Assembly: GCA_963749915.1 (NCBI GenBank)
Contig: CAVVOP010000021.1
Span: 672,001-736,000 of the forward strand
Origin: an uncultured cyanobacterium
GTDB lineage: Bacteria > Cyanobacteriota > Cyanobacteriia > Cyanobacteriales > Cyanobacteriaceae
DNA: 64,000 nucleotides
Reading direction: 5' to 3'
The notes beneath the pieces are model-generated. The model did not search any database. It had not been told where the DNA came from and saw nothing but the letters and a program-made list of their open reading frames with translations. This document shows, in pieces, positions 29,135 through 54,872 of the stretch (position 1 is the first letter of the stretch; the number at the start of each line of letters is the position of its first letter). The position numbers were made by a program, and so were the translations under genes.

Positions 29135-31027
29135 GTGGTGGGGTCAAATAGCAATCAATCCTTTAATTATCTTACTCATGAAACCATGTTGACTTATTTA
29201 GAGTCTTTCCTCAAGCTATCAGGAAAGGAGCTATCCTTTGTAGATCTCTTAAACCATCGAGTACAGAATCAACCCGACCAAATAGTTTATACCTTTCTTC
29301 ATCGTGGAGAAACAGAAGCGTATAAGCTGACTTACGGGGAATTAGATTTCAAAGCACGAGCCATCGCCGCTCGGCTACAATCTTGTCAAGCTCAAGGGGA
29401 ACGAGCTTTGCTATTATATCCCCCTGGACTGGATTTCATTACCGCTTTTTTGGGCTGTTTGTACGCCTCTGTCATTGCGGTTCCTGCTTATCCCCCTAGA
29501 CCTAACCAAAAATTGACTCGATTACAGGCGATTGTCGCCGATGCACAACCAAAAGTAATTCTTACCACTAGCTCCCTGTTAGATAAGATAGAGCATCGTT
29601 TTAATCTCGATAGTACCATAGCGGTAGATCACTGGTTGGCTACGGACAATCTTAACCATGAGTTGGCATCACATTGGCAGAAACCAGTGATCAGTAGCGA
29701 TAATCTTGCCTTTCTCCAGTACACTTCTGGTTCAACGGGAAACCCTAAAGGTGTAATGGTCAGTCATGGAAATCTGTTGCACAATTCAGAGACAATTTAT
29801 CAGGCCTTTGGGCATACCCCCGAAAGTCGAGGAGTCATTTGGTTGCCACCCTATCATGACATGGGCTTAATTGGCGGTATTCTTCAGCCTCTATATGGAG
29901 GTTTTCCAGTGATCTTTATGTCACCAGTGGACTTTCTACAGAAGCCTTTGCGGTGGCTCAAGGCAATTTCTCACTATCGTGCTACTACCAGTGGCGGACC
30001 AAATTTTGCCTACGATCTTTTGATTCGCAAAGTGACTCCCGAACAGTTGGAGAGCTTGGATCTCAGTAGTTGGGAATTGGCTTTTACTGGGGCTGAACCT
30101 GTCCGTGCTGAGACACTAGAAAAGTTTGCCTGCACTTTTGCACCCTGTGGCTTCCGTAAAGAAGCATTTTTCCCTTGCTATGGAATGGCAGAAACGACTT
30201 TAATAGTTAGTGGAGGATTGAAATCGGCTACTCCTGTCATTGAGCAAGTAGAAAAAATAGCTCTTGAACAAAAGCAAATAATAGTAACCAAAGACGAAGA
30301 AGATTCTCGCAAAATTGTCGGTTGCGGTCAGAGCCTCCCAGGTCTAAATATAGTGATTGTTGATCCCCAATCTTCGACCTTAGTTCCCCATAACCAAGTA
30401 GGAGAAATTTGGATATCTGGTTCTAGTGTCACTCGGGGCTACTGGAACAAATCGGAGGAGACCCAGGAATCTTTTCATGGTTATTTAGCCGATACTAGAG
30501 AGGGTCCGTTTCTGCGTACGGGGGATTTGGGTTGCTTACAAAATGGGGAGTTATTCATCACCGGACGAATCAAAGATACAATTATCATTGGCGGTCAAAA
30601 TTATTATCCCCAGGATATTGAACTAACAGTTGAGAACAGCCATCCGGCTCTGCGTCCGAATTGTGGAGCGGCGTTTGCTGTAGACATAAAAGGTTCAGAA
30701 AGACTCGTGATCGTTCACGAAGTCAAACGTAGCTACCTGCGAAAGTTAGACGTTAAAGAGGTAGTTGACAATATCCGTCAGGCTATCACCGCAGAATACA
30801 ATTTGCGAATCTATGCCACAGTTTTGGTCAAAACTGGGAGTATCCCTAAAACATCGAGTGGCAAAATTCAGCGTCATGCCTGTAAAGCTGGATTTCTTAC
30901 GGCTAGTTTGAATGTAGTGGGAGACTGGAGCGAAAATCCCCGCCACAAAACCTCTTTTTTGCATCTTCAAGCTGAAGTTGAATCTATCTTAAAAAAGCTT
31001 GAGATGGTCCAACAATCACCCAAGTAA
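29135..31027 (+). CDS. Fatty acyl-AMP ligase (FAAL)
   Basis: AFLQYTSGSTGNPKG, WLPPYHDMGLIG, CYGMAETTL, LRTGDLG, PKTSSGKIQR; start may be ATG 29186. Confidence 0.93.
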   Translation: MVGSNSNQSFNYLTHETMLTYLESFLKLSGKELSFVDLLNHRVQNQPDQIVYTFLHRGETEAYKLTYGELDFKARAIAARLQSCQAQGERALLLYPPGLDFITAFLGCLYASVIAVPAYPPRPNQKLTRLQAIVADAQPKVILTTSSLLDKIEHRFNLDSTIAVDHWLATDNLNHELASHWQKPVISSDNLAFLQYTSGSTGNPKGVMVSHGNLLHNSETIYQAFGHTPESRGVIWLPPYHDMGLIGGILQPLYGGFPVIFMSPVDFLQKPLRWLKAISHYRATTSGGPNFAYDLLIRKVTPEQLESLDLSSWELAFTGAEPVRAETLEKFACTFAPCGFRKEAFFPCYGMAETTLIVSGGLKSATPVIEQVEKIALEQKQIIVTKDEEDSRKIVGCGQSLPGLNIVIVDPQSSTLVPHNQVGEIWISGSSVTRGYWNKSEETQESFHGYLADTREGPFLRTGDLGCLQNGELFITGRIKDTIIIGGQNYYPQDIELTVENSHPALRPNCGAAFAVDIKGSERLVIVHEVKRSYLRKLDVKEVVDNIRQAITAEYNLRIYATVLVKTGSIPKTSSGKIQRHACKAGFLTASLNVVGDWSENPRHKTSFLHLQAEVESILKKLEMVQQSPK

Positions 31028-31116: not shown

Positions 31117-31386
31117 ATGAACCTTCAGACTCTTACTGTAAAAGACAAAGAGATATCTGCTACAGAGATTCAAGATTGGATCGTCACCTATTTAGGAGAA
31201 TTACTGGAAGTAGATCCCGACGACATTGATGTCACCATTCCTTTCGATCGCTACGGTTTGGATTCTTCAGCCGCAGTCGGTTTGACGGGCGACTTGGAAG
31301 ACTGGCTAGGCAAAGAGATAGATCCGACTCTACTCTACGATTACCCAACCGTTGAGGCTTTGGTTCAACATTTAAGTCAGCATTAA
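31117..31386 (+). CDS. Acyl carrier protein
   Basis: FDRYGLDSS, LYDYPTV. Confidence 0.92.
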   Translation: MNLQTLTVKDKEISATEIQDWIVTYLGELLEVDPDDIDVTIPFDRYGLDSSAAVGLTGDLEDWLGKEIDPTLLYDYPTVEALVQHLSQH

Positions 31387-31473: not shown

Positions 31474-32835
31474 ATGACGGTTACCATTAAACCATCTACG
31501 ATAAAACAACAATTTTCCACTTACAGTGAGAGAAAAACTAACAAACATCTCAAACTGATTGAAACCACTTATCGCAGTAATACATCTTCCGACTACACTG
31601 AAAAAATTGAGGAGTTGACCAATAACTTCAACTACAACAGTAATAGTGGTAGTTATTGGAGTGAGCCTAGGCAGTCAATGCTATATGGTAGTCCACTCTA
31701 CGAAGTGGCCTCTCCCTCACAGAAGTTAGCCCTCAATCACCTTCACTGGTTTGCCAACTATAACTATATCTCTAATTCCGAAGCGGAAACCGTTATTTTC
31801 AACCAGATCACATCTAGCGTTTTTGAAGCGATCGGCGGTTACCAAACTCTCTCTAAGGAGTTAGCCATGGAAACAGAACAAGAATATTGCCACATCAAAG
31901 CTTTTCGCAAAATAGGTTTAATGACGGCAAAGGCTCTTATAGGCAAGGAAGGACTTAATAAACTCCTCAAATGGAACTCCTACAAATTAGTTTTAGGACA
32001 AGATTCTTTACCTACCTATAAGTATTATGCCTTGCGCTCTATAGCAACAACGATGCTTAGTAAAAACAAACAACAATATTCCAGTTATTTACGGGAGTTA
32101 GAAGCGAAAAATCATTTCATTATCAAAGCACCTACTACGGGAATGCTAGGGCGATCTTTAAAATATTCCCTGCCCTTGCAAAGTTTTTTCAGCTTCAACT
32201 GGGGAGCAGGGTCGCCTTTCATGGCTTGCCAATTCTACGCAATACGTATCATAGCTAACTTGTATCTCAAAAATATGGAGCATTCCATCGCTAAGTATTT
32301 TCAGAAGTTGGAGAAGAAGGAGGAGTTTATCCCGGCTCCCACAGCGGTCTCTCGCTACCATTTTTTGGATGAATCTTTCCACACCACCATATCTCAATTA
32401 CTGGCGAAAGATATGTATAAACATTTCCCTAAGCCAACAGCATATGAGAAATTTGTAGCTAACATGGTAATTTACATGATGCAAAGTGGCACTTTAGGCG
32501 GGCTTTCTGGTGTGTTACCTCATCGTTATTTTGCCGATGACTACTCGATTATGGAGCTAATTTACCAGCTACTACAAGCCCCTTTATTTGGCATGTCCGC
32601 CCAGGAAGCACTTCACTGGCTAAATCAGTGCTTATGTTATGAACATGAAGGTTTTCATGGGGCACTGGAGAATCGCCAACGCCTTTTATCAGAAATGTGC
32701 CGATTCTTTGAAGATATTGATTATCTCTGGCCCATCAACCGAGAAATGCGTTTAATGGCCGCACGAGGTTCAATCAGCGAAGCCATCGGCAACAATATCA
32801 GGACCTTTGAGCATTTTTCTCGCTCGGTAACTTAA
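31474..32835 (+). CDS. CylC-type dimetal-carboxylate halogenase (AurF-like)
   Basis: EQEYCH and YHFLDESFH ExxH motifs; position between FAAL-ACP and PKS. Confidence 0.8.
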   Translation: MTVTIKPSTIKQQFSTYSERKTNKHLKLIETTYRSNTSSDYTEKIEELTNNFNYNSNSGSYWSEPRQSMLYGSPLYEVASPSQKLALNHLHWFANYNYISNSEAETVIFNQITSSVFEAIGGYQTLSKELAMETEQEYCHIKAFRKIGLMTAKALIGKEGLNKLLKWNSYKLVLGQDSLPTYKYYALRSIATTMLSKNKQQYSSYLRELEAKNHFIIKAPTTGMLGRSLKYSLPLQSFFSFNWGAGSPFMACQFYAIRIIANLYLKNMEHSIAKYFQKLEKKEEFIPAPTAVSRYHFLDESFHTTISQLLAKDMYKHFPKPTAYEKFVANMVIYMMQSGTLGGLSGVLPHRYFADDYSIMELIYQLLQAPLFGMSAQEALHWLNQCLCYEHEGFHGALENRQRLLSEMCRFFEDIDYLWPINREMRLMAARGSISEAIGNNIRTFEHFSRSVT

Positions 32836-32908: not shown

Positions 32909-35395
32909 TTGAATTTATTAAATATGGAACCCATAGCAATTGTTGGCATTGGTTGCCGTTTCCCTAAAGCAAAGAATCCCGAAGCCTTCTGGCAATTATT
33001 AAGAAATGGTGTAGATGCGATCACCGAGGTACCGTCAGAGCGGTGGGATATTGACAGATTTTATGAGCCTCAGCCAGCTACCCTAGGAAAAATGAATACT
33101 CGCTGGGGATGCTTTTTGGAACATGTAGATCAATTTGACCCTGGCTTTTTTGGTATTTCCACCCCTGAAGCAGAACACATGGATCCCCAGCAAAGATTGA
33201 TGTTGGAGGTAGCCTGGGAAGCTTTAGAAAACGCCGGAATAATACCAGAAACGCTGGGGGGTACCCAGACTGGGGTATTCGTTGGCATCACCAATGCTGA
33301 TTACAATAAACTTATCTACAAAGATGCTTACCAAGTCGGGGCATACAGTCCCACGGGGACCACCCAGTGCATTGCCGCTAATCGTCTGTCCTACTTGCTG
33401 AATCTGCGAGGACCCAGTATGGCCATCGATACGGCTTGTTCGTCGTCATTATTGTCAGTTCATTTGGCGTGTCAGAGTTTGAGGAGCTTAGAGTCGTGTT
33501 TATGCCTGGTCGGGGGAGTCAATCTGGTGCTGATTCCCGAACCAACTGTAAGTTGTTCCCAAGCTCAAATGCTGTCCTCTGAGGGTCGCTGTAAGATTTT
33601 TGATGCCAGTGCCAATGGCTATGTTCGGGGAGAGGGCTGTGGCGTAATTATCCTCAAGCGTCTATCTGATGCTGTTCAAGACGGAGATAATATCCTTGCC
33701 CTCATCAGGGGTACAGCAGTTAACCACAATGGGTTGAGCAACAGTCTGAGCGCACCCAATGGACTCGCTCAACAGTCTGTAATTCGCCAAGCTTTAGAAA
33801 ATGGAAACGTCAAACCCCCAGAGATTAGCTATGTTGATGCTCACGCTGTCGGTAGTGGGCTCGGAGACGCCATCGAGTTTAAAGCCCTTAAAGCAGTTCT
33901 CATGGAAGGTCGCGAGCCAGATCAACCCTGTAGGATAGGCTCGGTCAAAACCAATATCGGTCATTTAGAATCTGCTGCTGGGATTGCTGCTTTGATTAAA
34001 GTAGTCCTCTCGTTGCAACACGAAGAAATTCCTCCGCACCTACATCTTGAAGAGCTTAATCCTTATATTTCTCTGGAAGATACCCCATTTTCCATTCCTA
34101 CCAAGTTACAGCCATGGTCTCGTGGAGAAAAGAGTCGTTTCGCTGGGGTAAGTGCTTTTAGTTTTGGTGGCACTAATGCTCACATTATTTTAGAGGAAGC
34201 ACCCCGTTCAGTAAACACTCATCAGTTAGAAGTAAACAGTAATAAAGAAACCGAGCGTCCACTCCATCTATTAACCCTATCAGCTAAAACAGAAAATGCC
34301 TTATTAGAATTAGTTGGTAATTATCAAAACTATTTGGCAACTCATCCGCAATTAAAGCTTGCAGATATTTGCTTTACTGCTAATACTAAACGCACACATT
34401 TTAACCACCGCCTCTGTATAGTTGCTGAATCCATCGCCCAGTTACGGGAAAAGTTAAAGCCTATTATCGCTCAAGAAACAACTGCTAGAGTATTCAGGGG
34501 TAAAGTAAAGGGCAGAAAACGCCCTAAAATTGCTTTCTTCTTCCCCGAGAATGAATCGGCATCTCTGAGTATGGGGTATCAACTATATCAAACTCAGCCG
34601 ACATTTCGTCAAGCTTTCGATCGCTGTGCTGATTTTCTGCAACCCTACTTAGAAAAACCTCTCTTAGAAGAACTAGGAAAGAATTCTCAATCCCAAATCG
34701 ACCAACCTGCCTTATTTGCCCTGGAATATGCCCTTGCCCAACTGTGGTATTCCTGGGGTATTAAACCCAAAGCAGTTATGGGTTGTGGAATCGGAGAATA
34801 CGTTGCGGCTACCGTAGCTGGGGTATTTAGTCTAGAAGAAGCCCTTAAATTGATTGCCGAAAGAACTCGTCTAAAGCAAGCAAACTGTTCGCTGGAAGAA
34901 ACCCTCTCTGCTTTTGCACCAATAGCCGAACAAGTAAGCTACTCTCAACCAAAGATTGGCTTTATTTCCACTTCCAGTGGAGAATTGACAACAAAATCAA
35001 TAGCGACTCCCGAGTATTGGTGTCTTCATTTACAACAGTCGGAAATCTCTGCTGGTGGTATAGAAGCTTTAGCCGACTATCAAGTGGTTTTGACCATGGG
35101 TTCACAGGCGACTTCTTTATGCCAAGAAGTGGGAACTCACCTATTTAGCTTAGGTCAAGGACGAGATGATTGGCTAGAAATGCTTTCTAGTTTAGGAGAA
35201 TTATTTGTTCGCGGGATAGCCATAGACTGGTGTAGTTTTGACCGAGATTATCCCCGTCGTCGTCTCCAACTACCGACTTATCCATTTCAGCGACAGCGAT
35301 ACTGGTTTAAATCTACTGATAATGAGCAGCAATTATTGCCTCACCACAAAGATCTAGACTCTGACTTCGAAAAAGTTTTGGCCCTCTCATCTTAA
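32909..35395 (+). CDS. Type I PKS module, KS plus degenerate AT
   Basis: DTACSSS, DAHAVGS, GHLESAAG; AT motif GCGIG lacks the catalytic Ser; likely start ATG 32924. Confidence 0.9.
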   Translation: MNLLNMEPIAIVGIGCRFPKAKNPEAFWQLLRNGVDAITEVPSERWDIDRFYEPQPATLGKMNTRWGCFLEHVDQFDPGFFGISTPEAEHMDPQQRLMLEVAWEALENAGIIPETLGGTQTGVFVGITNADYNKLIYKDAYQVGAYSPTGTTQCIAANRLSYLLNLRGPSMAIDTACSSSLLSVHLACQSLRSLESCLCLVGGVNLVLIPEPTVSCSQAQMLSSEGRCKIFDASANGYVRGEGCGVIILKRLSDAVQDGDNILALIRGTAVNHNGLSNSLSAPNGLAQQSVIRQALENGNVKPPEISYVDAHAVGSGLGDAIEFKALKAVLMEGREPDQPCRIGSVKTNIGHLESAAGIAALIKVVLSLQHEEIPPHLHLEELNPYISLEDTPFSIPTKLQPWSRGEKSRFAGVSAFSFGGTNAHIILEEAPRSVNTHQLEVNSNKETERPLHLLTLSAKTENALLELVGNYQNYLATHPQLKLADICFTANTKRTHFNHRLCIVAESIAQLREKLKPIIAQETTARVFRGKVKGRKRPKIAFFFPENESASLSMGYQLYQTQPTFRQAFDRCADFLQPYLEKPLLEELGKNSQSQIDQPALFALEYALAQLWYSWGIKPKAVMGCGIGEYVAATVAGVFSLEEALKLIAERTRLKQANCSLEETLSAFAPIAEQVSYSQPKIGFISTSSGELTTKSIATPEYWCLHLQQSEISAGGIEALADYQVVLTMGSQATSLCQEVGTHLFSLGQGRDDWLEMLSSLGELFVRGIAIDWCSFDRDYPRRRLQLPTYPFQRQRYWFKSTDNEQQLLPHHKDLDSDFEKVLALSS

Positions 35396-35446: not shown

Positions 35447-35761
35447 ATGAAAGAAAAGATTTTAGAAGCCCCACAGCATCCGAGTACTCCATCGATGAGT
35501 GCAGAAGATATTCAAGATTGGTTGGCATCTCAAATTGCTGAACAGTTAGGAGTCGACCCCGATGAGATTGATATTCGAGTACCTTTCGATAGCTACAGCT
35601 TAGACTCTGTGCAGATCATGGCCATTGCGAGCCTAGGAAAACAATATTTAGGTCTGCAACTCTCTCCCCTGGTTATCTGGAATTATCCCAATATTGACTC
35701 TCTGTCTCACCACTTGGCTCAAGAATTACAAGCTTCGGAAATAGAGGTTTTAGAACTATGA
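35447..35761 (+). CDS. Acyl carrier protein
   Basis: FDSYSLDSV, IWNYPNI; acidic C-terminal docking-like tail. Confidence 0.88.
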   Translation: MKEKILEAPQHPSTPSMSAEDIQDWLASQIAEQLGVDPDEIDIRVPFDSYSLDSVQIMAIASLGKQYLGLQLSPLVIWNYPNIDSLSHHLAQELQASEIEVLEL

Positions 35762-37668
35762 AAACTATCCATGTATCAGAACTTTTGACAAATCTTAGTC
35801 AACAAGGGGTTCAGTTGTGGAGTGATCATGACAAATTAAAAATCAATGCTCCCAAGGGAACTTTAACCCCACAAATTCAGGCAGATCTAACCGCACGCAA
35901 AACAGAAATTCTCACTTTTTTGCGTGAAAGTAATGATTCTGGTTGCCAAACTTCTACTGGACTAAGTTTACAGACAATTGGTCGTTTAATTGGTGGATCT
36001 TGTCCTAGTTCTCCCATAGAGTTCAAATCACCCATTGTCGATCCCAAAGTAATGGCAAAACACCTCAAAGTTACCTTGAGACCATTGCCAAAAGGATTTG
36101 AGAATCAAGCTATTCTGAAGCTTGGCCAAGAATTAGAACTCAAGCTGCGAAACTACGGCGTGCAAATTATTTCTTGGGAAAAAGCAACCAGGGACTTTGC
36201 TTATGGAATTCCTATTCCCTTAACTAAATGGAAAAAAACGATTAAAACCAGAGTAGTTAAACCTGAAATTAGTGCGGTAATAGATGTTAGCAGACCGAGC
36301 AATAAAATTAAAAGTTTTATTGCCGAAAAATTCTATCAAATTTATTCTCAATTTTTCTTGAGAAATCAAAAAAAATCCCTTGCGACAATTACCAAGTTGA
36401 TTGCCTGGGCTGAAGATCATACAATGCAACGTCTCGAAGATCCTACCGCTACTCAAGTAATTATGTTGACACAGCTCGATCGAGATTTTGTTGACTCAAA
36501 AGTCCCCTATGAAAGGAAAATTGCTATTGGTGTAAATACTTTAGTAAAAAGCTTTGCTGAAATTGTGATCGGGGTATCTGAGAGCAAGATTTCTATCTTA
36601 AATATGAATCTTGCCGATTCTCTTTTTCCGAGAGAAAAGTTTGATGATTTCGTTTTGAAATCCTTAATTCCGAAAATTTACGTACCGATCGCACCTTTGC
36701 CCCTCAATCGCTTTGCCATAAGTAAATACAATCCCAAACAATCACTTTATGCAACTAAATTACAACAATTGAGTCAAGAATTGGCAAATACGGGACTTTT
36801 TCCTTCCGGCTTCAAACTCGGTGAGATAATTAAACGGCAATCCCATCGAGACATTGTTGATTCAATTGTCAATGGTAGAACAGGTGTTTCTTACGGTTTT
36901 GTTGCTTATGCCGAGCCACCACAGTATATTGGCGATCGCCAAATCACAGAAAGTCAGTGGCAAAGTCTCTCATCCGTAGAGGGATTTAGTAGCAAGGAAG
37001 TCCGTCAAAATGCCATGGGCAGACGGTATCTCAAAACCAAGATCAAGGATCGATACGCCTACAAACAAATTCCCGATATCTGGCTAGTATGTTCCCGTTC
37101 CGGTGCCAATAAGACAGATTTAAAGCTAGAGGGTGACATTCTTAGGATAGGTATGAAAAATAATTTATACCTTGAGATAGCAGAAGGTATCGATCCGACA
37201 CAAGTAGATGTCAAGCCTTCTTACGATACTTACGTGATGGTAGCGATCGCCCTCTCAGCAGCTCTGTATGCACCTGAATTAATAGAGAATGGTGCACCAA
37301 TGATTCATTTTCACGGCTATCCAGCCAAAGACTGGTTTGAGTCAAAGGAATTTTGGGCTGGAGTTGAGCATCCCTCTGTCCCCTGTGGAACTTATGAATC
37401 GGGAGTATTCAATTTTCTCAGTATTTATAATTTGGTCAACCAAAAGGACACCCCTATTGCCTTAGCCAGTCTAATCGAACCGGATCACGGCACGAATATT
37501 ATCACCAGCGATTCGGAGTATTTACTAGCAAGATTAGCAAGGGGAATCCAACAGCAACAAATCGAATTAGGTGGCAAGCATTTTGCTTCCCTTAGCGAAA
37601 GACCCTTAGCCGTGGCAAATCCGCAAGGATACACCGCCATTTGCCCTGACAAAAGTTTGAACATGTAA
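35758..37668 (+). CDS. TubC-N docking domain fused to unknown / class II aldolase-like domain
   Basis: ELLTNLSQQGVQLWSDHDKLKINAPKGTLT..RKTEILTFL; SRSGANK, KPSYD, HFHG, PDHG. Confidence 0.65.
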   Translation: MKTIHVSELLTNLSQQGVQLWSDHDKLKINAPKGTLTPQIQADLTARKTEILTFLRESNDSGCQTSTGLSLQTIGRLIGGSCPSSPIEFKSPIVDPKVMAKHLKVTLRPLPKGFENQAILKLGQELELKLRNYGVQIISWEKATRDFAYGIPIPLTKWKKTIKTRVVKPEISAVIDVSRPSNKIKSFIAEKFYQIYSQFFLRNQKKSLATITKLIAWAEDHTMQRLEDPTATQVIMLTQLDRDFVDSKVPYERKIAIGVNTLVKSFAEIVIGVSESKISILNMNLADSLFPREKFDDFVLKSLIPKIYVPIAPLPLNRFAISKYNPKQSLYATKLQQLSQELANTGLFPSGFKLGEIIKRQSHRDIVDSIVNGRTGVSYGFVAYAEPPQYIGDRQITESQWQSLSSVEGFSSKEVRQNAMGRRYLKTKIKDRYAYKQIPDIWLVCSRSGANKTDLKLEGDILRIGMKNNLYLEIAEGIDPTQVDVKPSYDTYVMVAIALSAALYAPELIENGAPMIHFHGYPAKDWFESKEFWAGVEHPSVPCGTYESGVFNFLSIYNLVNQKDTPIALASLIEPDHGTNIITSDSEYLLARLARGIQQQQIELGGKHFASLSERPLAVANPQGYTAICPDKSLNM

Positions 37669-37689: not shown

Positions 37690-38559
37690 ATGACAACCAT
37701 AGCAGGTAAAACAGTACTTCTAACCGGTGCCTCCCGAGGTATTGGCCTATTTATCGCCCGTGAACTAGCCAAAAAACAGGCAACTATAGTGGCTGTAGCC
37801 CGTTCCCGAGAAAAATTGGATCGAGTCTGTGGGGAAATTAATAATAATTGGGGTGGGAAAGCTATTGGCATTTCTTTCGACCTAAGCCAGGTAGAACAAC
37901 TACCAACCTTGGTAGAAAAGATTGAAAAACAGGCTGGTTCGATTGACATCTTAATTAACAACGCCGGCAGAGAAATCTATCGAGCTTTCCCCGATTATTC
38001 CCTTGCTGAGCTTCAGTCAGTTTTATCAATTAACTTGCTGGCGGCGATGGAGTTGACCCGTTTACTATTGCCAAATATGTTAGAGCAACGCACCGGTCAC
38101 GTTGTCAATATTGCCTCTCTGGCTAGTAAAAAGGGACATCCTTACGACAGTATTTATTCTGCCAGTAAAGCCGGTTTGCTGATGTGGGCTGATGCCCTCA
38201 GACAAGAATTAGCGAATACTGGAGTAGGAATTTCTTCTATTTGCCCTGGATACATTTCCGACTTCGGACTGTTAGCCGATACTGGCGTGCCCTCACCGAG
38301 TTTGGCAGGCACCTCTAAATCACAAGATGTAGCCAAAGCAGTAGTGGGGGCGATCGAGAAAAACAAAGCGGAAGTCATAGTCAATGGTGGATTGCTTACA
38401 GAAAGTCTAACAAAGCTATTATTGGCGATCGAACAATTTTTTCCTCAACTGGGAGATTCGGTTAATCAGTTGCTAGGTGTAACTAGGCTCAATCAAATGC
38501 GCATTAAAGCTGTTGAGAATAATCAGAAAAATACTAAACAAGCGAGTTTAGTTAGATAA
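37690..38559 (+). CDS. SDR family oxidoreductase
   Basis: TGASRGIG, INNAG, YSASK. Confidence 0.93.
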   Translation: MTTIAGKTVLLTGASRGIGLFIARELAKKQATIVAVARSREKLDRVCGEINNNWGGKAIGISFDLSQVEQLPTLVEKIEKQAGSIDILINNAGREIYRAFPDYSLAELQSVLSINLLAAMELTRLLLPNMLEQRTGHVVNIASLASKKGHPYDSIYSASKAGLLMWADALRQELANTGVGISSICPGYISDFGLLADTGVPSPSLAGTSKSQDVAKAVVGAIEKNKAEVIVNGGLLTESLTKLLLAIEQFFPQLGDSVNQLLGVTRLNQMRIKAVENNQKNTKQASLVR

Positions 38560-38630: not shown

Positions 38631-39785
38631 ATGAAAAAAGTATATTTCATGATTTACGACATGGGGGCAGGTCATCGTAGCACTGCCAATGCCTTGAAAG
38701 AAGTTATCGAACAGTACAAAATCCCCTGGAAAGTTGAAGTCGTTGAAGTTTTCAAAGAAGTCTTTGGCATGACTAGACCCCAGTTTGTCTATAACAATTG
38801 GGTATTGAAAAAAAAATGGGCAAAACTGATTAATGACCCCTTATCGGTTCCCTTATTCAAGCTGGAAATTCGCCTTCGACATCGAGCTTGGCAAAAACGC
38901 CTGAAAGATTATTGGCGGCAGCATCAACCAGATCTCGTCGTTTCTCTGATGCCACTAGTTAATCGGGTGCTTTCTGAAAGCTTACAGGAAGAGCTACCAA
39001 AAACTCCTTTTGTTACCTCGATCACGGATTTTGCTGACTGCCCTCCCCACTTCTGGATTGAACCCCAAGAACAGTTGCTAATTTGTCCTTCTGAGCAAGC
39101 AGTTAAACAAGCACAATCTTTTGGTTATCCCCTGGAAAGAATTTACCGAACCTCGGGAGTAGTTATTCACCCTCAGTTTTATGAGCCAGTGAAAATGGAT
39201 CGGCCGGTTGAAAGACAACGCTTAGGACTAGATCCAGATTTACCCACAGGCCTAGTTATCTTTGGCAGTAATGGCTCGAAGGAAATGATCGAGATTGCTG
39301 AGCGTTTAGAGAATTCATCCCTAAACCTCCAACTCATCTTTATCTGCGGCAGAAATGAAAAACTAGCCAAAGAGTTGCAAAATAGGCAAACTCGCTTCCC
39401 TAAGTATGTTGAAGGATTTACCACACAAATTCCCCACTATATGGATTTATGCGATTTCTTCATTGGTAAACCTGGCAGTGTTGGCGTTAGCGAGGCTGTA
39501 GGCAGAAAACTGCCAGTAATTACGGAGTGTAATAATCTCACAACTTTGTTTCAAGAACGAGCTAGTGCCCATTGGCTGACAGATAACGGATTCGGCATTG
39601 TTGTTGAGAATTTCCGCGAGATTAGCAAAGCCGTGGCAGAACTAATCCAGCCGGAAAACTTGTCTCGCTATCGGTCTAATGTGGAAGCTTATAACAATCG
39701 GGCTGTCTTTGAAGTTGTCGATATTTTAGAAAAAATCCTGGAAAACTCAACACTAGAAGCTGACCACAAATTAATTCAAGTGTAA
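38631..39785 (+). CDS. GT28 / MGDG-synthase-like glycosyltransferase
   Basis: GAGHRSTA, ICGRNEKL, FIGKPG..SEA. Confidence 0.88.
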   Translation: MKKVYFMIYDMGAGHRSTANALKEVIEQYKIPWKVEVVEVFKEVFGMTRPQFVYNNWVLKKKWAKLINDPLSVPLFKLEIRLRHRAWQKRLKDYWRQHQPDLVVSLMPLVNRVLSESLQEELPKTPFVTSITDFADCPPHFWIEPQEQLLICPSEQAVKQAQSFGYPLERIYRTSGVVIHPQFYEPVKMDRPVERQRLGLDPDLPTGLVIFGSNGSKEMIEIAERLENSSLNLQLIFICGRNEKLAKELQNRQTRFPKYVEGFTTQIPHYMDLCDFFIGKPGSVGVSEAVGRKLPVITECNNLTTLFQERASAHWLTDNGFGIVVENFREISKAVAELIQPENLSRYRSNVEAYNNRAVFEVVDILEKILENSTLEADHKLIQV

Positions 39786-39867
39786 AAAACGATGAGGCTT
39801 CACAGATCGCTGTGCGATCGCAACTATTACCAATTTTCGAGAAAACAATTTTGATGGAGAATTGAAC

Positions 39868-40701
39868 ATGAAAACTATAGCAAACAAAACAGTAGTTTTA
39901 ACTGGAGCTTCAGGGGGTATTGGTGCATTCGTTGCTCGTGCTTTAGCCCAAGAGGGAGCAACCGTAGTCGGGGTTTCTCGTTCTCAGGCAAATTTAGAAC
40001 AAATCTGTACTGAGGTTGAGACATTGGGGGGCAAAGGAATCAGCATTCCCTTCGACATCAGCCGCCTAGAAAAATTACCCGTCCTGGTAGAAAAGATTGA
40101 GGCAATTGCTGGTTCAGTTGATATTTTAATTAACAATGCGGCAATTGAAAAATTTCGACCTTTCCCAAACTACGCCTTAGAAGATATCCAATCGATCTTG
40201 ACGCTCAATCTTCATGCACCCATGGAATTAACCCGCTTGTTATTGCCAAGCATGATAGAGCGAAACAGTGGTCATATCGTCAATATTTCTTCGGGTGCTG
40301 GTAAAAAAGGAGCACCTTTTAACAGCGTCTATTCTGCCAGTAAAGCAGGTTTAATCACCTGGTCTGAGGGAATACGACATGAGTTAGCCAAGACCAATAT
40401 CGGAGTTTCGGTAATCTGCCCTGGATGTACCAATGCGGGAATGTTCCTCGCCCTAGATATTCCAGCACCTAGTGGAGCTCGCATTGCCGAACCATCAGAG
40501 GTGGCAGATGTGGTAATTCAAGCCATTAAGCAAAACCAAAAAGAAGTCATCCTCGATAGTTTTGCGGTCAAGGTTTTTTATGCCCTTTCCCAACTGTCTC
40601 CAGACTTTGGCGATTCGATGATTCAAAAATCTGGAGTGGTAGAGACGAACCAAAGTCTTGCTCAAAAGCAAATGCAGCTTAAAAGTCTCGTCCGCAATTA
40701 A
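39868..40701 (+). CDS. SDR family oxidoreductase (paralogue of 37690)
   Basis: TGASGGIG, INNAA, YSASK; start taken at MKTIA. Confidence 0.93.
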   Translation: MKTIANKTVVLTGASGGIGAFVARALAQEGATVVGVSRSQANLEQICTEVETLGGKGISIPFDISRLEKLPVLVEKIEAIAGSVDILINNAAIEKFRPFPNYALEDIQSILTLNLHAPMELTRLLLPSMIERNSGHIVNISSGAGKKGAPFNSVYSASKAGLITWSEGIRHELAKTNIGVSVICPGCTNAGMFLALDIPAPSGARIAEPSEVADVVIQAIKQNQKEVILDSFAVKVFYALSQLSPDFGDSMIQKSGVVETNQSLAQKQMQLKSLVRN

Positions 40702-40744: not shown

Positions 40745-42322
40745 ATGAATAACAATCATTATGATGTCATAATTATCGGTACCGGTGCGGGTGGTGGCAC
40801 TCTCGCCAGAACTCTGGCCCCCAGCGGCAAGAAAATTTTACTTTTAGAGCGAGGAAATTTTCTGCCCAAAGAAAAAGCTAATTGGGATTCTCAAGAAGTT
40901 TACGGTAAAGACCGCTATCGCACTACTGACGAGTGGTATGACAAAGACGGCAATCCCTTTCAACCCTTTACTCATTATTTTGTGGGTGGAAACACTAAAT
41001 TTTACGGTAGCGCACTGTACCGTTTTCGTGAACGAGACTTTGAAGAAGTTCTGCATAAAGATGGTATTTCTCCAGAATGGCCCTTGAAATATCAAGATTT
41101 TGAACCTTACTATACTAAAGCGGAAAAACTCTATGATGTACACGGAAAAAGAGGTATTGACCCGACTGAACCCCCCAGTGATCAAGACTATCCCTTTCCA
41201 CCCATCAGCCACGAACCCCAGATCGAAAAAATCTGCCATAACCTTAAAGATAGGGGTTTTCATCCCTGTTATCAGCCCCTAGGGATCAAGCTTAATGAAG
41301 TCAATCGTTTTATAAGTACCTGTATTCGTTGTAATACCTGTGATGGCTTTCCTTGCATGGTTAATGCCAAAGCCGATGGCGATGTAAATGGCGTACGTCC
41401 GGCAATGGTCTATGAGAACCTAACTTTAATCACTGAAGCCAAAGTATTGTGCCTACACACCAGTCCCTCAGGACGGGAGGTGACAGGCGTGGAAGCAGAA
41501 ATTGCGGGAGAAAGACAAATTTTTTCGAGCGATATCGTAGTAGTTGCTGGGGGAGCGATCAACTCAGCTGTTTTACTACTTAAATCTGCTAACGAGCAAC
41601 ATCCTCATGGATTAGCCAATAGTTCCGATCTAGTAGGCCGTAACTATATGCGGCACAAGATTTCAGCCATTGTCGCTTTGGGAGTTAAACCCAATCCAAC
41701 GGTGTATCCGAAAACCCTTGCTGTAAATGATTTTTATTGGGGAGAGTCAGATTTTCCTTACCCGATGGGTCACGTACAAACTTTGGGTAATATCACCGAA
41801 GACCGTGCTGCGGCTAATAGTCCGCCTTTTGTTCCCAGTAAACTAATTCCTAGAGCGGTATTTAAAGCGATCGCAAATCGCACAACTCCCTGGTTTTTGA
41901 TGGCAGAAGACTTACCAGATCCCAACAATCGCGTACGCGTCGAGGGGGAGAAAATTTTTCTCGAATATACCAACAATAACGACGAAGCACTCAACCGTCT
42001 AGTTAAACGCTGGCAGGAAGTTCTGAGGTCGATTGAACCTTTATCGCTCTTTTTTACCACAGAGATGTCCATCAAAGACGTTGGTCATCAGTGCGGTACT
42101 TGTCTTTTTGGCGAAGATCCTGCGACTTCTGTACTCGATCTCAATTGCCGCACCCACGATGTCGATAACCTTTACGTTGTGGATGGAAGTTTTTTCCCTT
42201 CCAGTGCCGCTTTGAACCCAACGCTGACCATTATTGCCAATGCCATTAGGGTGGGAGAACACCTGCTCGACAGGATGCGTTGCTCCGAGCGTGCATCCCT
42301 AAATAACTATCAGTCCGTATAG
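40745..42322 (+). CDS. GMC family oxidoreductase
   Basis: GTGAGGG, VGGNTKFYG, HQCGT, NPTLTIIANA. Confidence 0.93.
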   Translation: MNNNHYDVIIIGTGAGGGTLARTLAPSGKKILLLERGNFLPKEKANWDSQEVYGKDRYRTTDEWYDKDGNPFQPFTHYFVGGNTKFYGSALYRFRERDFEEVLHKDGISPEWPLKYQDFEPYYTKAEKLYDVHGKRGIDPTEPPSDQDYPFPPISHEPQIEKICHNLKDRGFHPCYQPLGIKLNEVNRFISTCIRCNTCDGFPCMVNAKADGDVNGVRPAMVYENLTLITEAKVLCLHTSPSGREVTGVEAEIAGERQIFSSDIVVVAGGAINSAVLLLKSANEQHPHGLANSSDLVGRNYMRHKISAIVALGVKPNPTVYPKTLAVNDFYWGESDFPYPMGHVQTLGNITEDRAAANSPPFVPSKLIPRAVFKAIANRTTPWFLMAEDLPDPNNRVRVEGEKIFLEYTNNNDEALNRLVKRWQEVLRSIEPLSLFFTTEMSIKDVGHQCGTCLFGEDPATSVLDLNCRTHDVDNLYVVDGSFFPSSAALNPTLTIIANAIRVGEHLLDRMRCSERASLNNYQSV

Positions 42323-42355: not shown

Positions 42356-43522
42356 ATGATATTTGATTGGTTAATTGTAGGAGCAGGATATTCAGCTTGT
42401 GTTCTAGCCGAGCGAATTGCGACTCAACTGGGACAGAGGGTATTGATCGTTGAACGGCGAGATCATATTGGTGGCAATGCTTACGATTATTACAATGAGC
42501 ATGGCATCCTGGTTCATAAATACGGTCCTCACATCTTTCATACCAAGTCTAAAAAAGTCTGGGATTATCTCTCTCAATTCACAGAATGGAGACACTACCA
42601 TCATCATGTATTGGGAGTAGTAGAAGGAAAGAAAGTTCCCATTCCTTTTAATCTCAATTCCCTATACGCCCTTTTTCCGCCAAAGTACGCAGAAAGGCTG
42701 GAAAATTTACTGCTAGAAAACTTCGGTTTTGGAGTAAAAGTACCTATTTTAAAACTGCGGGAAAGTACCAGTGGAGATTTAAGTTTTCTCGCTGATTACA
42801 TTTATGAAAATATCTTCCTTCGCTACACCATGAAGCAATGGGGAGTTAAACCAGAAGAACTGGATCGTGGCGTAACGGGGCGCGTACCAGTTTATCTCAG
42901 TCGGGATAATCGTTATTTTCAAGACCCTTACCAAGCAATGCCCAAGCTTGGCTACACGGAAATGTTCCGGCGAATGCTGGCTCATCCCAATATCAAGGTG
43001 TTGCTTAATACCGATTACCGCGAAATCATTAAAGATGTCAAGTTTAATCGGCTAGTTTGTACCGGACCAATCGATACTTTCTTCGACTATATGTATGGGG
43101 AATTGCCCTATCGCAGTCTGCACTTTCAATTCGAGACTTTAGATCAAGAGCAATATCAAGAAGTGGGTACAGTTAACTACCCCAATGACTACGATATCAC
43201 CCGCATTACTGAACAAAAGTATTTGTCAGGACAAACTTCTCCCAAAACTACCTTGGTCAGGGAGTATCCCCAGGCTTATGTACCGGGTCAAAATGACCCC
43301 TATTATCCCATCTTGAATGAGGACAACCGCGATCGCCTGAATCTTTACCTCAAAGAAGTAGAAAACCTCAGGGGTACGGTCTTGTTTGCCGGAAGACTGG
43401 CAGACTACAAGTATTACGACATGGATCAAGCCGTCATTCGAGCTTTAGGGTTGTTTGAAAAAGAAATAGCCCGGCCAACTCAGTTAGAACGAAGTAAACG
43501 AAGAGAGCTAATTTCTGTTTAA
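42356..43522 (+). CDS. glf: UDP-galactopyranose mutase
   Basis: HIGGNAYD, HKYGPHIFHT, LPYRSL, GRLADYKYYDMD. Confidence 0.95.
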   Translation: MIFDWLIVGAGYSACVLAERIATQLGQRVLIVERRDHIGGNAYDYYNEHGILVHKYGPHIFHTKSKKVWDYLSQFTEWRHYHHHVLGVVEGKKVPIPFNLNSLYALFPPKYAERLENLLLENFGFGVKVPILKLRESTSGDLSFLADYIYENIFLRYTMKQWGVKPEELDRGVTGRVPVYLSRDNRYFQDPYQAMPKLGYTEMFRRMLAHPNIKVLLNTDYREIIKDVKFNRLVCTGPIDTFFDYMYGELPYRSLHFQFETLDQEQYQEVGTVNYPNDYDITRITEQKYLSGQTSPKTTLVREYPQAYVPGQNDPYYPILNEDNRDRLNLYLKEVENLRGTVLFAGRLADYKYYDMDQAVIRALGLFEKEIARPTQLERSKRRELISV

Positions 43523-43571: not shown

Positions 43572-44489
43572 ATGAAACAACCACAAGCTATTTTAAATAA
43601 GCAACGTCTCGACTGTCCGATCTGTAATTATCACGTCGATCCGAACAATGAATCGGCATTTGTTACTTTCTCCTGCAACCTGAGAGCCTTTGCCGATGAA
43701 AAATTTAGGGTTTGGCGATGTCCCGATTGCCAGACAATTCACTGTTTAGATGTGGTCGATCTGGACTACTACTACTCAAAATACCCCTATGGTGAGTTAG
43801 CTTTAACACCACCATTACGTCTCGTTTATCAGAATCTATATCGACGGCTTGCCAAACATGGATTTTCCCAGAATCATTCACTGCTCGATTATGGCTGTGG
43901 CAAGGGCTTGTTTATTCAATATCTGCGAGAGCGCGGCTTTAAAAATTGCCACGGATATGATCCCTATGGACCCCCAGAAGATTTCGGCGATCCGTCAACT
44001 CTCCAATGGGGTCAATTTGATTATATATTACTTTCCGATGTAATCGAACACGTTGAAGATCCTTACTCCCTCTTAGCTAAGTTAGACGGTCTCCTCGCCC
44101 CTGGCGGTCAGATTCTGATTGGTACGCCCAATGCAGCCAATATCGACCTGTCCCAGCCCGACCTATCCGATTATTATAACGAAGTTCACGTTCCCTATCA
44201 CCTTCATATCTACACTCGCCAATCAATTGAAGCCCTGGGCAATGGCCAGGGCTGGAAGCCTATTGATTTCTTCGAGCGAGCCTACTACGACGTACCTTGG
44301 TTGGGTTTGAATGCTCGTGCCTGGAATCAATACCAACGCCTCTGCGATGGCACAATTAATGCCGTTGTCGAAGACGCGATCGAGCTAGGGAAAGCATTAA
44401 CTTCTTACAAGTTCATCTTTTATGCAATTTTCGGCTATTGGTTGAGTTTGCGAACGGGGATGGATATTGTGTTTCGCAAAAGTAATTAA
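43572..44489 (+). CDS. Class I SAM-dependent methyltransferase with N-terminal Zn ribbon
   Basis: CPIC/CPDC; LLDYGCGKG; DVIEHVEDP; PGG..GTPN. Confidence 0.9.
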   Translation: MKQPQAILNKQRLDCPICNYHVDPNNESAFVTFSCNLRAFADEKFRVWRCPDCQTIHCLDVVDLDYYYSKYPYGELALTPPLRLVYQNLYRRLAKHGFSQNHSLLDYGCGKGLFIQYLRERGFKNCHGYDPYGPPEDFGDPSTLQWGQFDYILLSDVIEHVEDPYSLLAKLDGLLAPGGQILIGTPNAANIDLSQPDLSDYYNEVHVPYHLHIYTRQSIEALGNGQGWKPIDFFERAYYDVPWLGLNARAWNQYQRLCDGTINAVVEDAIELGKALTSYKFIFYAIFGYWLSLRTGMDIVFRKSN

Positions 44490-44524: not shown

Positions 44525-45751
44525 ATGAACATATCCCAATCATCTCCTCCAAAAGAAAAATTTGTAATTAACGTCATCACCGGACAGGGTGGTGGCGGGC
44601 ATTACGCCAGCTATCATGCCATCCGCGCTATTGCCGAGCAACAAAAACTACCTTGGCATTTCCAAGTTACTGACATGGATGAAATCATCGCCAACTTAGC
44701 ACGACAAAATCAGGTGAAAAACGCTTATGAAATGTTGGGGTTTTCCGGGCATGACCTCTATAATCTGATGCAAAAAAGTGGTTGGACATGGCTTTGGCCC
44801 TTAAAGATGCGCCTGAATAAATTTTTGGTCAAACTCAATTACGATGTCGGTGTCAAGATTTTTGAGGAATACTGGCGTGAGCAACAGCCCGATTTAGTTG
44901 TCTCTGTAATGCCTTTATACAATAAAGGACTCTCGGAAAGTTTAGAAAAAGCAAAACCAGGAACTCCTTATGTAACTGTTCCCGTAGATTTTGCCGACTA
45001 TCCACCGGCATTTTGGCTCGAGCCAGAAGCTAATAATTACACGGTCTGTGGTACGGAAAAAGCTGTTGAGCAAGCGCGATCCCTGGGAGTAAAAGAGGAG
45101 CTAATCGTTCCATCTTCAGGCATGGTAATTCATCCTCGTTTCTACGAACCCCTAGAAGGCGATCGTCGTGGCGAAAGAGAACGTTTGGGTTTAGATCCTA
45201 ACTGTTTAACGGGAATTGCCATGTTTGGGGGTAACGGCTCTAAAACAATGTTAGAAATTGCCAACCGTCTGGAGTCCTTTGGGGACAAGCTACAACTGAT
45301 ATTCCTTTGCGGACGCAATCAAGAACTGGCGTCAACTTTACGCCAATATCAAGGTATTCAGAAACGGTTTATCACTACTTTTACCGCAGACGTCCCTTAT
45401 TATATGCACCTTGGTGATTTCTTTATCGGCAAACCAGGACCTGGGAGTCTTAGCGAAGCATTGGCAATGAAGTTACCAGTGATTACAGAATGCAATGCTT
45501 CGACCCTTATTCACGAGCGATATAACGCCGAATGGGTTCGGGAGAAAGGAGTAGGATTAGTTGTTCGCAATTTTCGCCAGATCGAAAAGGCGATGGCGCA
45601 GTTTTTAGAGCCAGAAACTTTTGCTCAATATAGAGCCAATGTTGCAGCATTGAACAACCGCGGGGTATTTGAAGTTGCTGCTTTTTTACAAAAGATTTTG
45701 GCTACTAGAGACAAAAAAATAAAAGTCACAGAACTCCTAAAGCAAAATTAG
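44525..45751 (+). CDS. GT28 / MGDG-synthase-like glycosyltransferase
   Basis: GGGGHYAS, LCGRNQEL, IGKPGPGSLSEA. Confidence 0.88.
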   Translation: MNISQSSPPKEKFVINVITGQGGGGHYASYHAIRAIAEQQKLPWHFQVTDMDEIIANLARQNQVKNAYEMLGFSGHDLYNLMQKSGWTWLWPLKMRLNKFLVKLNYDVGVKIFEEYWREQQPDLVVSVMPLYNKGLSESLEKAKPGTPYVTVPVDFADYPPAFWLEPEANNYTVCGTEKAVEQARSLGVKEELIVPSSGMVIHPRFYEPLEGDRRGERERLGLDPNCLTGIAMFGGNGSKTMLEIANRLESFGDKLQLIFLCGRNQELASTLRQYQGIQKRFITTFTADVPYYMHLGDFFIGKPGPGSLSEALAMKLPVITECNASTLIHERYNAEWVREKGVGLVVRNFRQIEKAMAQFLEPETFAQYRANVAALNNRGVFEVAAFLQKILATRDKKIKVTELLKQN

Positions 45752-45765
45752 TTAATTTAATCTCG

Positions 45766-46677
45766 ATGAATGATTTGAATCCATTAAACTCGTTTTTTTT
45801 CGATCATAAAGCTCCGACTTATTTGATAGCACTTATTCTGGAAGTAATTATTCTTTATCCTTTATTTGGTTTCTTTAAATGGTCTCTGCTTTCTAGAATG
45901 AAAATGCCTTTGACTGAACGAAAACTGATTTTCTCCAATCGCAGAAAATACTTTGAACTAAAATATTTTATTAATAGATATGGCGATAGAAATCTGAGAA
46001 TTGTAGATGGTCTTTCTCGCAAGCTGCTTCATATAGCCACAGGTCTTTGGCAGTTGGCAATCTTGAATTTATTGATTAAAGATACTTATGTAGCCTTTAA
46101 AGTTACATTGACTTATCAAATTACTATGGTTTTTCTGAGTATAGTCAGCTATTCATCCAACAAGATCATCGGCTTGGCTGGATTATTGTATGGTGCCTCC
46201 AGTCGAATTCGGGATGGGGTCTATGGTAGAAAAAATCTCTTAGTGGCTCGATTATCATTTCTGAATTTATTACCATTAATGTTCATAGACTCCCTGGCTA
46301 GAAACCAGGTGTCAGATCCAATTAACCTAGTATTTTTTTCATTTTTTATATTTTTGCCTTTAACCATTGGTGATGCTTTAGGTGAAATCATCGGAACTAT
46401 ATGGGGAAAGCAAAAACTCCACGTCTGGGGGGTAGGTGAAATTAATCGCAAATCTCTACTGGGAACAGCTTCTGTTTTTCTTGGGAGTTTATTGCCTCTG
46501 TTGTTAATAGTTTTTTTTAATGGTTTGCCTTGGTCATGGTGGCTAATGTGTCTGTCTATTGCCATCATAACTACTATAGTTGAACTGATTAGTCCCAGAG
46601 GAACAGATAACTTTTTTATCCCTTTAGGTAATGCTTTAGTTTGCCTAATTTTTGTCAATGGGTTCGCCGCTATATAG
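45766..46677 (+). CDS. CTP-dependent phytol/dolichol-kinase-like membrane protein
   Basis: SRKLLHI, IGDALGEIIG..WGK, KSLLGT, GTDNFFIP; multiple hydrophobic segments. Confidence 0.75.
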   Translation: MNDLNPLNSFFFDHKAPTYLIALILEVIILYPLFGFFKWSLLSRMKMPLTERKLIFSNRRKYFELKYFINRYGDRNLRIVDGLSRKLLHIATGLWQLAILNLLIKDTYVAFKVTLTYQITMVFLSIVSYSSNKIIGLAGLLYGASSRIRDGVYGRKNLLVARLSFLNLLPLMFIDSLARNQVSDPINLVFFSFFIFLPLTIGDALGEIIGTIWGKQKLHVWGVGEINRKSLLGTASVFLGSLLPLLLIVFFNGLPWSWWLMCLSIAIITTIVELISPRGTDNFFIPLGNALVCLIFVNGFAAI

Positions 46678-54861: not shown

Positions 54862-54872
54862 TTAACTCAAGG

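Follow-up and report, generated by a model that had tools for sequence, protein, structure and literature searches.

An aldolase-fold protein with a docking domain as a proposed terminator of a cyanobacterial lipid assembly line

The gene and its carrier protein

We analysed a stretch of 64,000 nucleotides from an uncultured cyanobacterium (GenBank assembly GCA_963749915.1, contig CAVVOP010000021.1, positions 672,001 to 736,000), referred to here as the window. It contains a co-oriented gene cluster spanning 29135 to 56039, in which the gene at 35758..37668 encodes a 636-amino-acid (aa) protein directly downstream of an acyl carrier protein (ACP). Judged by its sequence, this protein is a new member of a kind of enzyme that has already been proposed, with NglG of Nostoc punctiforme as the example, and that is uncharacterised. 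We suggest that the NglG homologue ends a lipid line by turning acyl-ACP into a 1-hydroxy-2-ketone that is one carbon longer (R-CO-CH2OH), and we give this explanation as a whole a probability of roughly 0.5.

The start codon of the gene overlaps the stop codon of the ACP gene (35447-35761) by 4 nucleotides (ATGA). The 104-aa ACP has an acidic C-terminal end that reads ...ASEIEVLEL, and the 636-aa protein begins with a TubC-type beta-hairpin docking domain. In the predicted model, the docking region (residues 3-60) resembles the beta-hairpin docking domain of AerJ (8aqq; Z 9.9, root-mean-square deviation (rmsd) 1.8, VIA-align). An earlier examination of this DNA from its letters alone, hereafter the sequence-only reading, had described the docking domain, its translational coupling to an acidic-tailed ACP and the lack of condensation (C), adenylation (A) and thiolation (T) domains, all of which we found again. 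TubC_N is the sole Pfam match of the protein at E<=0.1 and NCBIfam gives no match, which means that no C, A or T domain follows. The name 'non-ribosomal peptide synthase' given to such proteins in databases appears to derive solely from the docking domain, and we rejected this identity since no C, A or T domain is present.

Predicted structure and conserved residues

Outside the docking domain, sequence and profile searches of Pfam, NCBIfam and PDB sequences returned no match, and the ESM Atlas returned no usable one. An AlphaFold model built from 111 sequences (predicted local distance difference test score, pLDDT, 83.6) consists of three parts. Among 48,161 VIA-align comparisons of this model, the 15 best rows were all class II aldolase-fold chains (Z 14.1-10.7), led by FucA (2opi; Z 14.1, rmsd 2.8 Å over 164 residues, model range 324-603) and including RhaD (13.7), AraD (11.9), POD (11.3) and TqaM (10.7). 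The leading Foldseek matches also had this fold (best E 9.8e-4, probability about 1). This agrees with the class II aldolase-like metal site that the sequence-only reading had proposed from four motifs: SRSG..K (446-452), KPSYD (486-490), HFH (517-519) and DHG (576-578). All four are present and align, with the correction that the first actually reads CSRSGANK.

A profile-profile alignment (hhalign) to five aldolase-II proteins (FucA, RhaD, AraD and YgbL of Escherichia coli and the host's own) places S448-G449, S488-Y489-D490, H517/H519 and H577 at T43-G44, S71-S72-E73, H92/H94 and H155 of FucA; taken alone this alignment is weak (probability 41%, E 2.8e-4). The protein has no match to Pfam PF00596 at E<=0.1, and a search of its own genome matched only another gene, which makes it a remote structural relative of the aldolase-II proteins rather than a member of that Pfam family. 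With FucA, RhaD, AraD, OtnC/YgbL, MtnB/APIP, POD and TqaM, it has in common the predicted fold (Z 10.7-14.1), three histidines, an acid at the position of FucA E73 and part of the phosphate pocket: of N29, T43, G44, S71 and S72 in FucA, the counterparts S448, G449 and S488 are kept, with Y489 at S72. It differs from them in its low identity (9-16%), in having aspartate for glutamate, an invariant cysteine and an insertion of about 50 residues (386-436), in its fusion to the docking and middle domains, and in its presumed thioester substrate.

The key residues of the aldolase-fold domain are S448, G449, K452, S488, D490, H517, H519, C543, E574 and H577. We examined them in a set of 444 sequences, made up of the query and fetched proteins of 440-700 aa, leaving out shorter and longer proteins and two poor matches. 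Even though this set includes relatives of 19-25% identity, 441 of the 444 proteins have D490, H517, H519, C543 and H577 together, and the other three have gaps there. Cys543, which the sequence-only reading did not mention, is thus as conserved as the metal ligands and is a candidate acyl relay. By the secondary structure of the model it precedes the helix at 546-562 and lies at the position of FucA F131, which we take to stand beside the aldehyde pocket.

Residues 96-312, folded alone (pLDDT 88.6), form a separate middle domain that had also been missed. Its four top VIA-align rows are CoaB/phosphopantothenoylcysteine synthetase (Z 10.1-9.3, rmsd 3.9-7.5 Å, 146-164 residues aligned), and generic Rossmann and receiver folds follow some 1-2 Z lower (Z 8.3 and below). 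In Foldseek, CoaB stands at rank 3 (probability 0.96), behind ribokinase-family chains at ranks 1-2 by E. As generic folds follow closely in Z and Foldseek places ribokinase-family chains higher, the assignment is only moderate; although CoaB is the best structural match, identity is 8-13%, rmsd is about 4 Å or more and there is no match at sequence level. From this modelled resemblance we infer a candidate domain for binding the pantetheine arm. A predicted complex of ACP and enzyme with zinc scored 0.20 (mark 0.32), its controls were not folded, and we used it neither for nor against the model.

Relation to NglG

Over 618 aligned residues, the 636-aa protein is 62% identical (E 0.0) to ACC81789.1 (B2J018) of Nostoc punctiforme ATCC 29133. 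We take the latter to be NglG (Npun_F3362) because, in the locus of its 90% cluster representative, the last ketosynthase (KS) has Q344, as stated for NglF. This locus (L029) contains a polyketide synthase (PKS) of the size of a KS-acyltransferase (AT)-dehydratase-enoylreductase-ketoreductase protein, the KS with Q344, the gene and a short-chain dehydrogenase/reductase (SDR). ACC81789.1 is therefore the apparent NglG, by indirect identification. The features that mark an NglG were found in the 636-aa protein: homology along the full length, an N-terminal beta-hairpin docking domain and a carrier with an acidic tail directly upstream.

Glasser et al. (2024, PMC10849952, Supplementary Note 3) propose that NglG, with its docking and putative aldolase domains, is a PKS terminator that works by C-C cleavage, possibly after a sugar has been incorporated, and the supplement reports several hundred homologues in clusters without termination domains. 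In the scheme of Fig. S22 of that supplement, the product of NglG is a hydroxymethyl ketone that is reduced by NglH or NglJ. According to the same source, nostochloroside A has a C21 tail derived from palmitate, with a 1,2-diol glycosylated at O1, and the ngl (pks3) line, which consists of palmitate plus two modules, gives C20, one carbon short of this tail (PMC10849952). The text and supplement available to us contain no assay of NglG (PMC10849952).

The sequence-only reading had inferred that the protein takes the acyl chain off the ACP and catalyses offloading or condensation, as a possibly new chain-release enzyme. Release is supported by the predicted fold with its metal residues, by the docking pair and by the gene's place closing an assembly line that has no thioesterase; the claim of novelty was too strong, as the hypothesis had been printed for NglG in 2024. 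The known ngl product narrows 'offloading or condensation' to a net extension by one carbon (CH2OH). In the published variant, other enzymes would attach the sugar to the chain and the 636-aa protein would carry out only the retro-aldol C-C cleavage (Supplementary Note 3 and Fig. S22, PMC10849952). Such a cleavage is the canonical reaction of the aldolase family; still, we consider this variant distinctly unlikely, as no other C-C-forming candidate is common to the loci, whose flanking genes vary widely, the docking domain points to an ACP-bound substrate, and the invariant cysteine would have no role in plain aldol chemistry.

The gene cluster in the window

Like the ngl cluster, the window cluster encodes an FAAL (fatty acyl-AMP ligase), an ACP, a CylC-like enzyme, SDRs, a glycosyltransferase, a methyltransferase and a CylK-like protein (Table 1). 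Unlike the ngl cluster, it lacks the elongating modules NglD and NglE, has in place of KS(C-Q-H)-ACP a KS of HAVG type, an AT that lacks the serine and a free ACP, and adds three GT28 enzymes, a UDP-galactopyranose mutase and a GMC oxidoreductase. The protein at 31474..32835, which we presume to be of CylC type, has no match in a search of PDB sequences. The CylK/NglO homologue with RTX repeats (50458-53367) suggests cryptic-halogenation chemistry on the cluster product. The 303-aa hydrophobic protein (45766-46677), which by eye we take to resemble a CTP-dependent lipid-alcohol kinase, is present in just 2 of 80 related loci.

Table 1. Features of the window cluster and domains of the NglG homologue
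Feature	Position	Strand	Basis
Fatty acyl-AMP ligase (FAAL)	29135..31027	+	Pfam, NCBIfam
Loading ACP	31117..31386	+	Pfam
Probable CylC-type dimetal-carboxylate halogenase	31474..32835	+	Weak AurF match (E 0.0046), ExxH motifs, position
KS-AT module	32909..35395	+	Pfam, motif alignment
Terminal ACP, Ser54 in DSV, acidic C-terminal docking tail	35447..35761	+	PP-binding, E 5e-13
NglG-type protein gene, 636 aa	35758..37668	+	Open reading frame calling, ATG start; NglG homology
TubC-type beta-hairpin docking domain, residues 6-57	35773..35928	+	Pfam PF18563 (TubC_N), E 2.3e-19
Middle alpha/beta domain, residues ~96-312, CoaB-like	36043..36693	+	Structure comparison of separately folded domain
Class II aldolase-fold predicted catalytic domain, residues ~324-603	36727..37566	+	AlphaFold model, Foldseek, VIA-align, profile alignment
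SDR 1, candidate ketoreductase giving 1,2-diol (NglH-like position)	37690..38559	+	Pfam, context
GT28/MGDG-synthase-like glycosyltransferase 1	38631..39785	+	Pfam
SDR 2	39862..40701	+	Pfam
GMC oxidoreductase	40745..42322	+	Pfam
UDP-galactopyranose mutase (galactofuranose donor)	42356..43522	+	TIGR00031 above cut-off
Methyltransferase	43572..44489	+	Pfam
GT28-like glycosyltransferase 2	44525..45751	+	Pfam
Hydrophobic 303-aa membrane protein	45766..46677	+	No Pfam or NCBIfam match
GT28-like glycosyltransferase 3	46814..48049	+	Pfam
MFS exporter	48167..49732	+	Pfam, NCBIfam
CylK/NglO-type beta-propeller and RTX-repeat protein	50458..53367	+	CylK PDB chains, E 5e-84
DevB and DevC lipid-export genes	53548..56039	+	TIGR02971 and TIGR01185 above cut-off

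No thioesterase (TE) or thioester-reductase (TR) family was matched in Pfam or NCBIfam among the 24 proteins of the cluster and its flanks, and BLAST with TE and TR queries across window positions 25001-57000 found none either, in line with the absence claimed by the sequence-only reading. The same front end (FAAL-ACP-CylC-KS0/AT0) is known from the ClyE/ClyF system of chlorosphaerolactylate, in which the non-elongating KS0-AT0 of ClyE hands a halogenated fatty acyl chain to a partner with a docking domain (Abt et al. 2021, PMC7923214). There the partner is described as a nonribosomal peptide synthetase (C-A-KR-T-TE), whereas here it is an aldolase-fold protein without C, A or TE domains (PMC7923214).

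An IS200-type transposase fragment (28277-28462) lies just 5' of the cluster, and the GC content of 30001-54000 is 0.41-0.48, compared with mostly 0.33-0.41 in the flanks. As the gene was also not found in six other genomes of the host family, the cluster is consistent with an acquired island.

Distribution and gene neighbourhoods of the family

Of 7,996 candidates scored in a homology search, 596 proteins reached E<=0.001, and the named proteins among the best 120 matches are cyanobacterial. In a sample of the phylum the gene is patchy: it occurs in 31 of 401 genomes, in none of the six other genomes of the host family and in 27 of 46 genomes of another family. Neighbourhoods were counted in the best 80 of 218 genome loci (+/-10 kb, many ended by contig edges), and a FastTree run served just to choose subgroups. 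Of these 80 loci, 69 have an ACP match and 63 have KS-containing proteins; 58 encode an SDR or an extended SDR, and 60 encode a glycosyltransferase or an acyltransferase of PapA type. With a strict pattern, a carrier with an acidic tail stands upstream in 64 of 81 loci, window included. Three front ends recur, namely FAAL-ACP-CylC-KS/AT, modular PKS and polyunsaturated fatty acid (PUFA)-type synthase, the last marked by PfaD in 43 of the 80 loci. BLAST with one TE query found a thioesterase in none of the 80 loci, and an ACP-reductase is present in four.

In the window, the KS keeps C177, H312 and H352, with HAVGSG in place of HGTGT, and the AT has GCGIG with no serine. These motifs indicate that the window KS-AT is probably a non-elongating transfer unit. 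Where the site of the last KS could be aligned (30 proteins, window included), 12 have H->Q/N, 16 have HAVG, and HGTGT and HATGT occur once each; the active-site serine of the AT is missing in all 25 aligned. From these residues, the last KS of such lines looks usually non-elongating. The combination of HAVG for HGTG, an intact C-H-H triad and a serine-less AT, seen in the window and 15 related loci, is possibly a distinct signature of non-elongating KS.

These observations bear on an oxidative alternative, in which the last KS elongates, the three-histidine site uses Fe(II) and O2 to hydroxylate the alpha carbon of a beta-ketoacyl-ACP, and hydrolysis and decarboxylation then give R-CO-CH2OH. 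The window KS does keep its C/H/H residues, for ngl the carbon count likewise comes to C21, only part of the phosphate pocket is retained, and POD and TqaM, aldolase-fold oxygenases acting on other substrates, share the fold (Z 11.3 and 10.7). Nevertheless we judge this route unlikely on several grounds. H->Q/N is seen in NglF and in 11 KS like it, and the serine is absent from each of the 25 AT aligned at this site. In 43 of 80 loci a PUFA synthase forms the line, and its terminal ACP typically stands free. The aldolase-fold domain retains an acid at the position of FucA E73, and the 80 loci of docking-less relatives described below contain no KS or ACP match to the proteins of the window.

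A further alternative is that the protein docks to the ACP for tailoring or scaffolding, as the AerJ halogenase does with its docking domain, and that the release enzyme is encoded elsewhere. Beta-hairpin docking domains do occur on trans-acting tailoring enzymes such as AerJ, and one homologue (P0133, 837 aa; n=1) consists of a docking domain, an eroded NglG body and a fused thioesterase. P0133 lacks the three histidines, the cysteine and the SG..K motif, so the protein with its own thioesterase is one that has lost the metal site and the cysteine. As most loci showed no other release enzyme within the limits given above, we regard a non-releasing role as highly improbable.

Several other arrangements were seen in the neighbourhoods. 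Fischerella and relatives (L028, L032, L033, L035-L037, L041, L048) have PUFA-synthase lines with an unassigned 305-aa protein and a KSIII-like protein; some of these loci carry CylK-like, CylC-like and flavin halogenase genes before the ACP and NglG homologue, and some have two or three PapA-type acyltransferases after it. We read them as orphan halogenated-lipid clusters. Two recurring proteins of 430-460 aa with no Pfam or NCBIfam match adjoin NglG homologues, one with 10 copies in 8 loci and the other in 8 loci (examples are L079:14049-15428 and L072:6193-7491). On a plasmid of Gloeothece verrucosa PCC 7822 (L087, NC_014533.1), the homologue is followed by an oxidoreductase and a sulfotransferase, possibly for a sulfated diol lipid.

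Proposed mechanism

In the mechanism that we propose, the FAAL would load a fatty acid, the CylC-like enzyme would probably chlorinate it, and the KS-AT, going by its motifs, would probably only hand the chain over to the terminal ACP. The acidic tail of this ACP would then bind the beta-hairpin docking domain, as family precedent suggests. The pantetheine arm may sit in the CoaB-like middle domain, and the acyl group may move to Cys543. A ketose-type donor, with dihydroxyacetone phosphate (DHAP) the likeliest, would be enolised by Asp490 and the metal at the three histidines, and its enediolate would attack the thioester. The 2-hydroxy-1,3-dicarbonyl formed in this way would then be cleaved into R-CO-CH2OH and a two-carbon acid, which would be phosphoglycolate in the case of DHAP; the net result would be the same with a hydroxy acid that decarboxylates as the donor. 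This donor chemistry follows that of aldolase-II and OtnC-type enzymes. An SDR would reduce the ketone to an odd-chain 1,2-diol, and the three GT28 enzymes would glycosylate it. The product of the window cluster may accordingly be a chlorinated 1,2-diol one carbon longer than the fatty acyl chain, with up to three sugars, one of them possibly galactofuranose.

Our confidence differs between the parts of this explanation. It is very likely that the 636-aa protein is a chain terminator, and a net gain of CH2OH on a plain acyl-ACP (C20 + 1 = C21 in ngl) is probable. That condensation and cleavage both take place on this protein by way of Cys543 has a little less than an even chance. Several findings weigh against the proposed explanation. 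The full Cys-His-His triad of the window KS leaves room for a beta-ketoacyl substrate, and the CoaB match of the middle domain is moderate (rmsd 3.9-7.5 Å). The position of Cys543 is ambiguous, as hhalign places it at the cysteine of the IPCA motif of FucA and secondary structure at F131. The phosphate ligands N29 and S72 of FucA appear to be replaced by the aromatics F381 and Y489 (F381 by hand alignment only), which raises the possibility that the donor is something other than a phosphate ester. Finally, we found no measured activity of any family member in the literature covered, most subscription journals being outside this coverage; on later assays of NglG, that literature offers just the 2024 paper and mentions in passing.

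Release of this logic is known from alpha-oxoamine synthases and related enzymes dependent on pyridoxal phosphate (PLP), such as serine palmitoyltransferase with its ketoreductase and the alpha-hydroxyketone synthases CqsA and LqsA. There, too, an acyl thioester and a small carbon nucleophile give a ketone, followed by reduction by an SDR or sensing by a kinase. The fold of these enzymes is unrelated, and the 636-aa protein matched no PLP fold.

Relatives without a docking domain

A branch of relatives that lack the docking domain is 19-25% identical to the 636-aa protein and keeps every key residue. Among the 120 matches listed for one subgroup, all 13 taxon-named rows are Patescibacteria; for a second, seven of 120 are named, six as Balneolaceae/Bacteroidota and one as soil metagenome. 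We examined 80 of 306 metagenome loci, which are mutually related and not independent. A gene of one kinase cluster lies directly downstream in 62 of the 71 loci with room for it, and all four full-length kinases scanned are HisKA_7TM histidine kinases. PlsC-type acyltransferases are present in 34 of the 80 loci; where there is room for one (63 loci), 19 have it adjacent upstream. SDR genes occur in 8 loci and acyl-CoA ligase genes in 6. These loci (L088-L167, e.g., L096:8001-11254) may encode a lipid-signal synthase/sensor pair or a diol-lipid route. An alpha-hydroxyketone made next to a membrane kinase would be reminiscent of CqsA/CqsS.

The same counts of PlsC, SDR and ligase genes would suit another scheme, in which the acyl chain is joined to a whole triose or sugar phosphate (as O-acyl-DHAP or an uncleaved C-acyl product) and an SDR yields a lysophosphatidate-like or tetrol head. 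The sole known cluster product, as described by Glasser et al., has no ester and is a plain 1,2-diol one carbon beyond the PKS product (PMC10849952), and we hold this scheme to be very unlikely.

Returning to one-carbon extension, we may extend it to the family as a whole. The family would be a cysteine-relay, metal-enediolate one-carbon extender, a non-PLP alpha-hydroxyketone synthase with CoaB-like pantetheine-binding and aldolase-II domains. Its docking form would end cyanobacterial lipid lines, including the islands described below, where it would lead to odd-chain, very-long 1,2-diol esters. The docking-less form of Patescibacteria would act on acyl-CoA and, co-transcribed with the seven-transmembrane kinase, form a signal/sensor pair or, with PlsC, a glycerol-free route to diol lipids. 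This wider proposal is tentative and, as a whole, rather doubtful. Thermus, Thermomicrobium and Roseiflexus are bacteria with 1,2-diol lipids; none is among the named rows (13 of 120 and 7 of 120), and their plasmids gave no match, their chromosomes being outside the search.

PUFA-synthase islands

Six genomes picked from the phylum matches all have PUFA-synthase genes, a PapA-type acyltransferase, an ACP and the NglG homologue in a row. Divergent devBC genes lie upstream in five of them, the sixth region starting too close to judge, and five have a gene for a KS-AT-ACP-KR-DH fusion, about 2,300 aa long. Five loci (L168, L170, L172, L174 and L175, in genomes G071, G086, G020, G041 and G059, respectively) combine devBC, an hglEFG/hglC/hglA-like PUFA synthase, a PapA-type acyltransferase, an ACP and the NglG homologue. 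An orphan island of this kind has been described in a preprint that is presumably by Perez Gallego et al. The 'hgl-like' island has hgdCB and hglEFGCA in five open reading frames, with no hglB listed and with its product given as unknown (bioRxiv 10.1101/2024.05.17.594646). The islands in the six genomes fit this account, being matched by description and not by genome; the words 'aldolase' and 'TubC' were not found in the main text of the preprint.

Implications

How a PKS line that has no thioesterase gives an odd-chain vicinal diol is a question that the nostochloroside paper does not settle (PMC10849952). The window cluster is a simple test system for this, since it is stripped down to FAAL, ACP, halogenase-like enzyme, transfer KS, ACP, enzyme and SDR and lacks elongation modules. 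As specific targets for mutation it offers Cys543, Asp490 and the three histidines. The invariant cysteine, the CoaB-like domain, the link to the 'hgl-like' islands and the kinase pairing in Patescibacteria are new here, and they make the family more directly testable. If the proposed mechanism is true, the aldolase-II fold would have a new chemistry of chain release with C-C bond formation, and the mechanism would predict the products of many cyanobacterial clusters, including the islands that match 'hgl-like'. It would also provide the first function for a conserved gene of Patescibacteria. Bacteria of the candidate phyla radiation are, according to the abstract of PMC7242380, considered unable to make membrane lipids. 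If the route with PlsC is true, there would be diol lipids without glycerol in cells thought unable to make membrane lipids.

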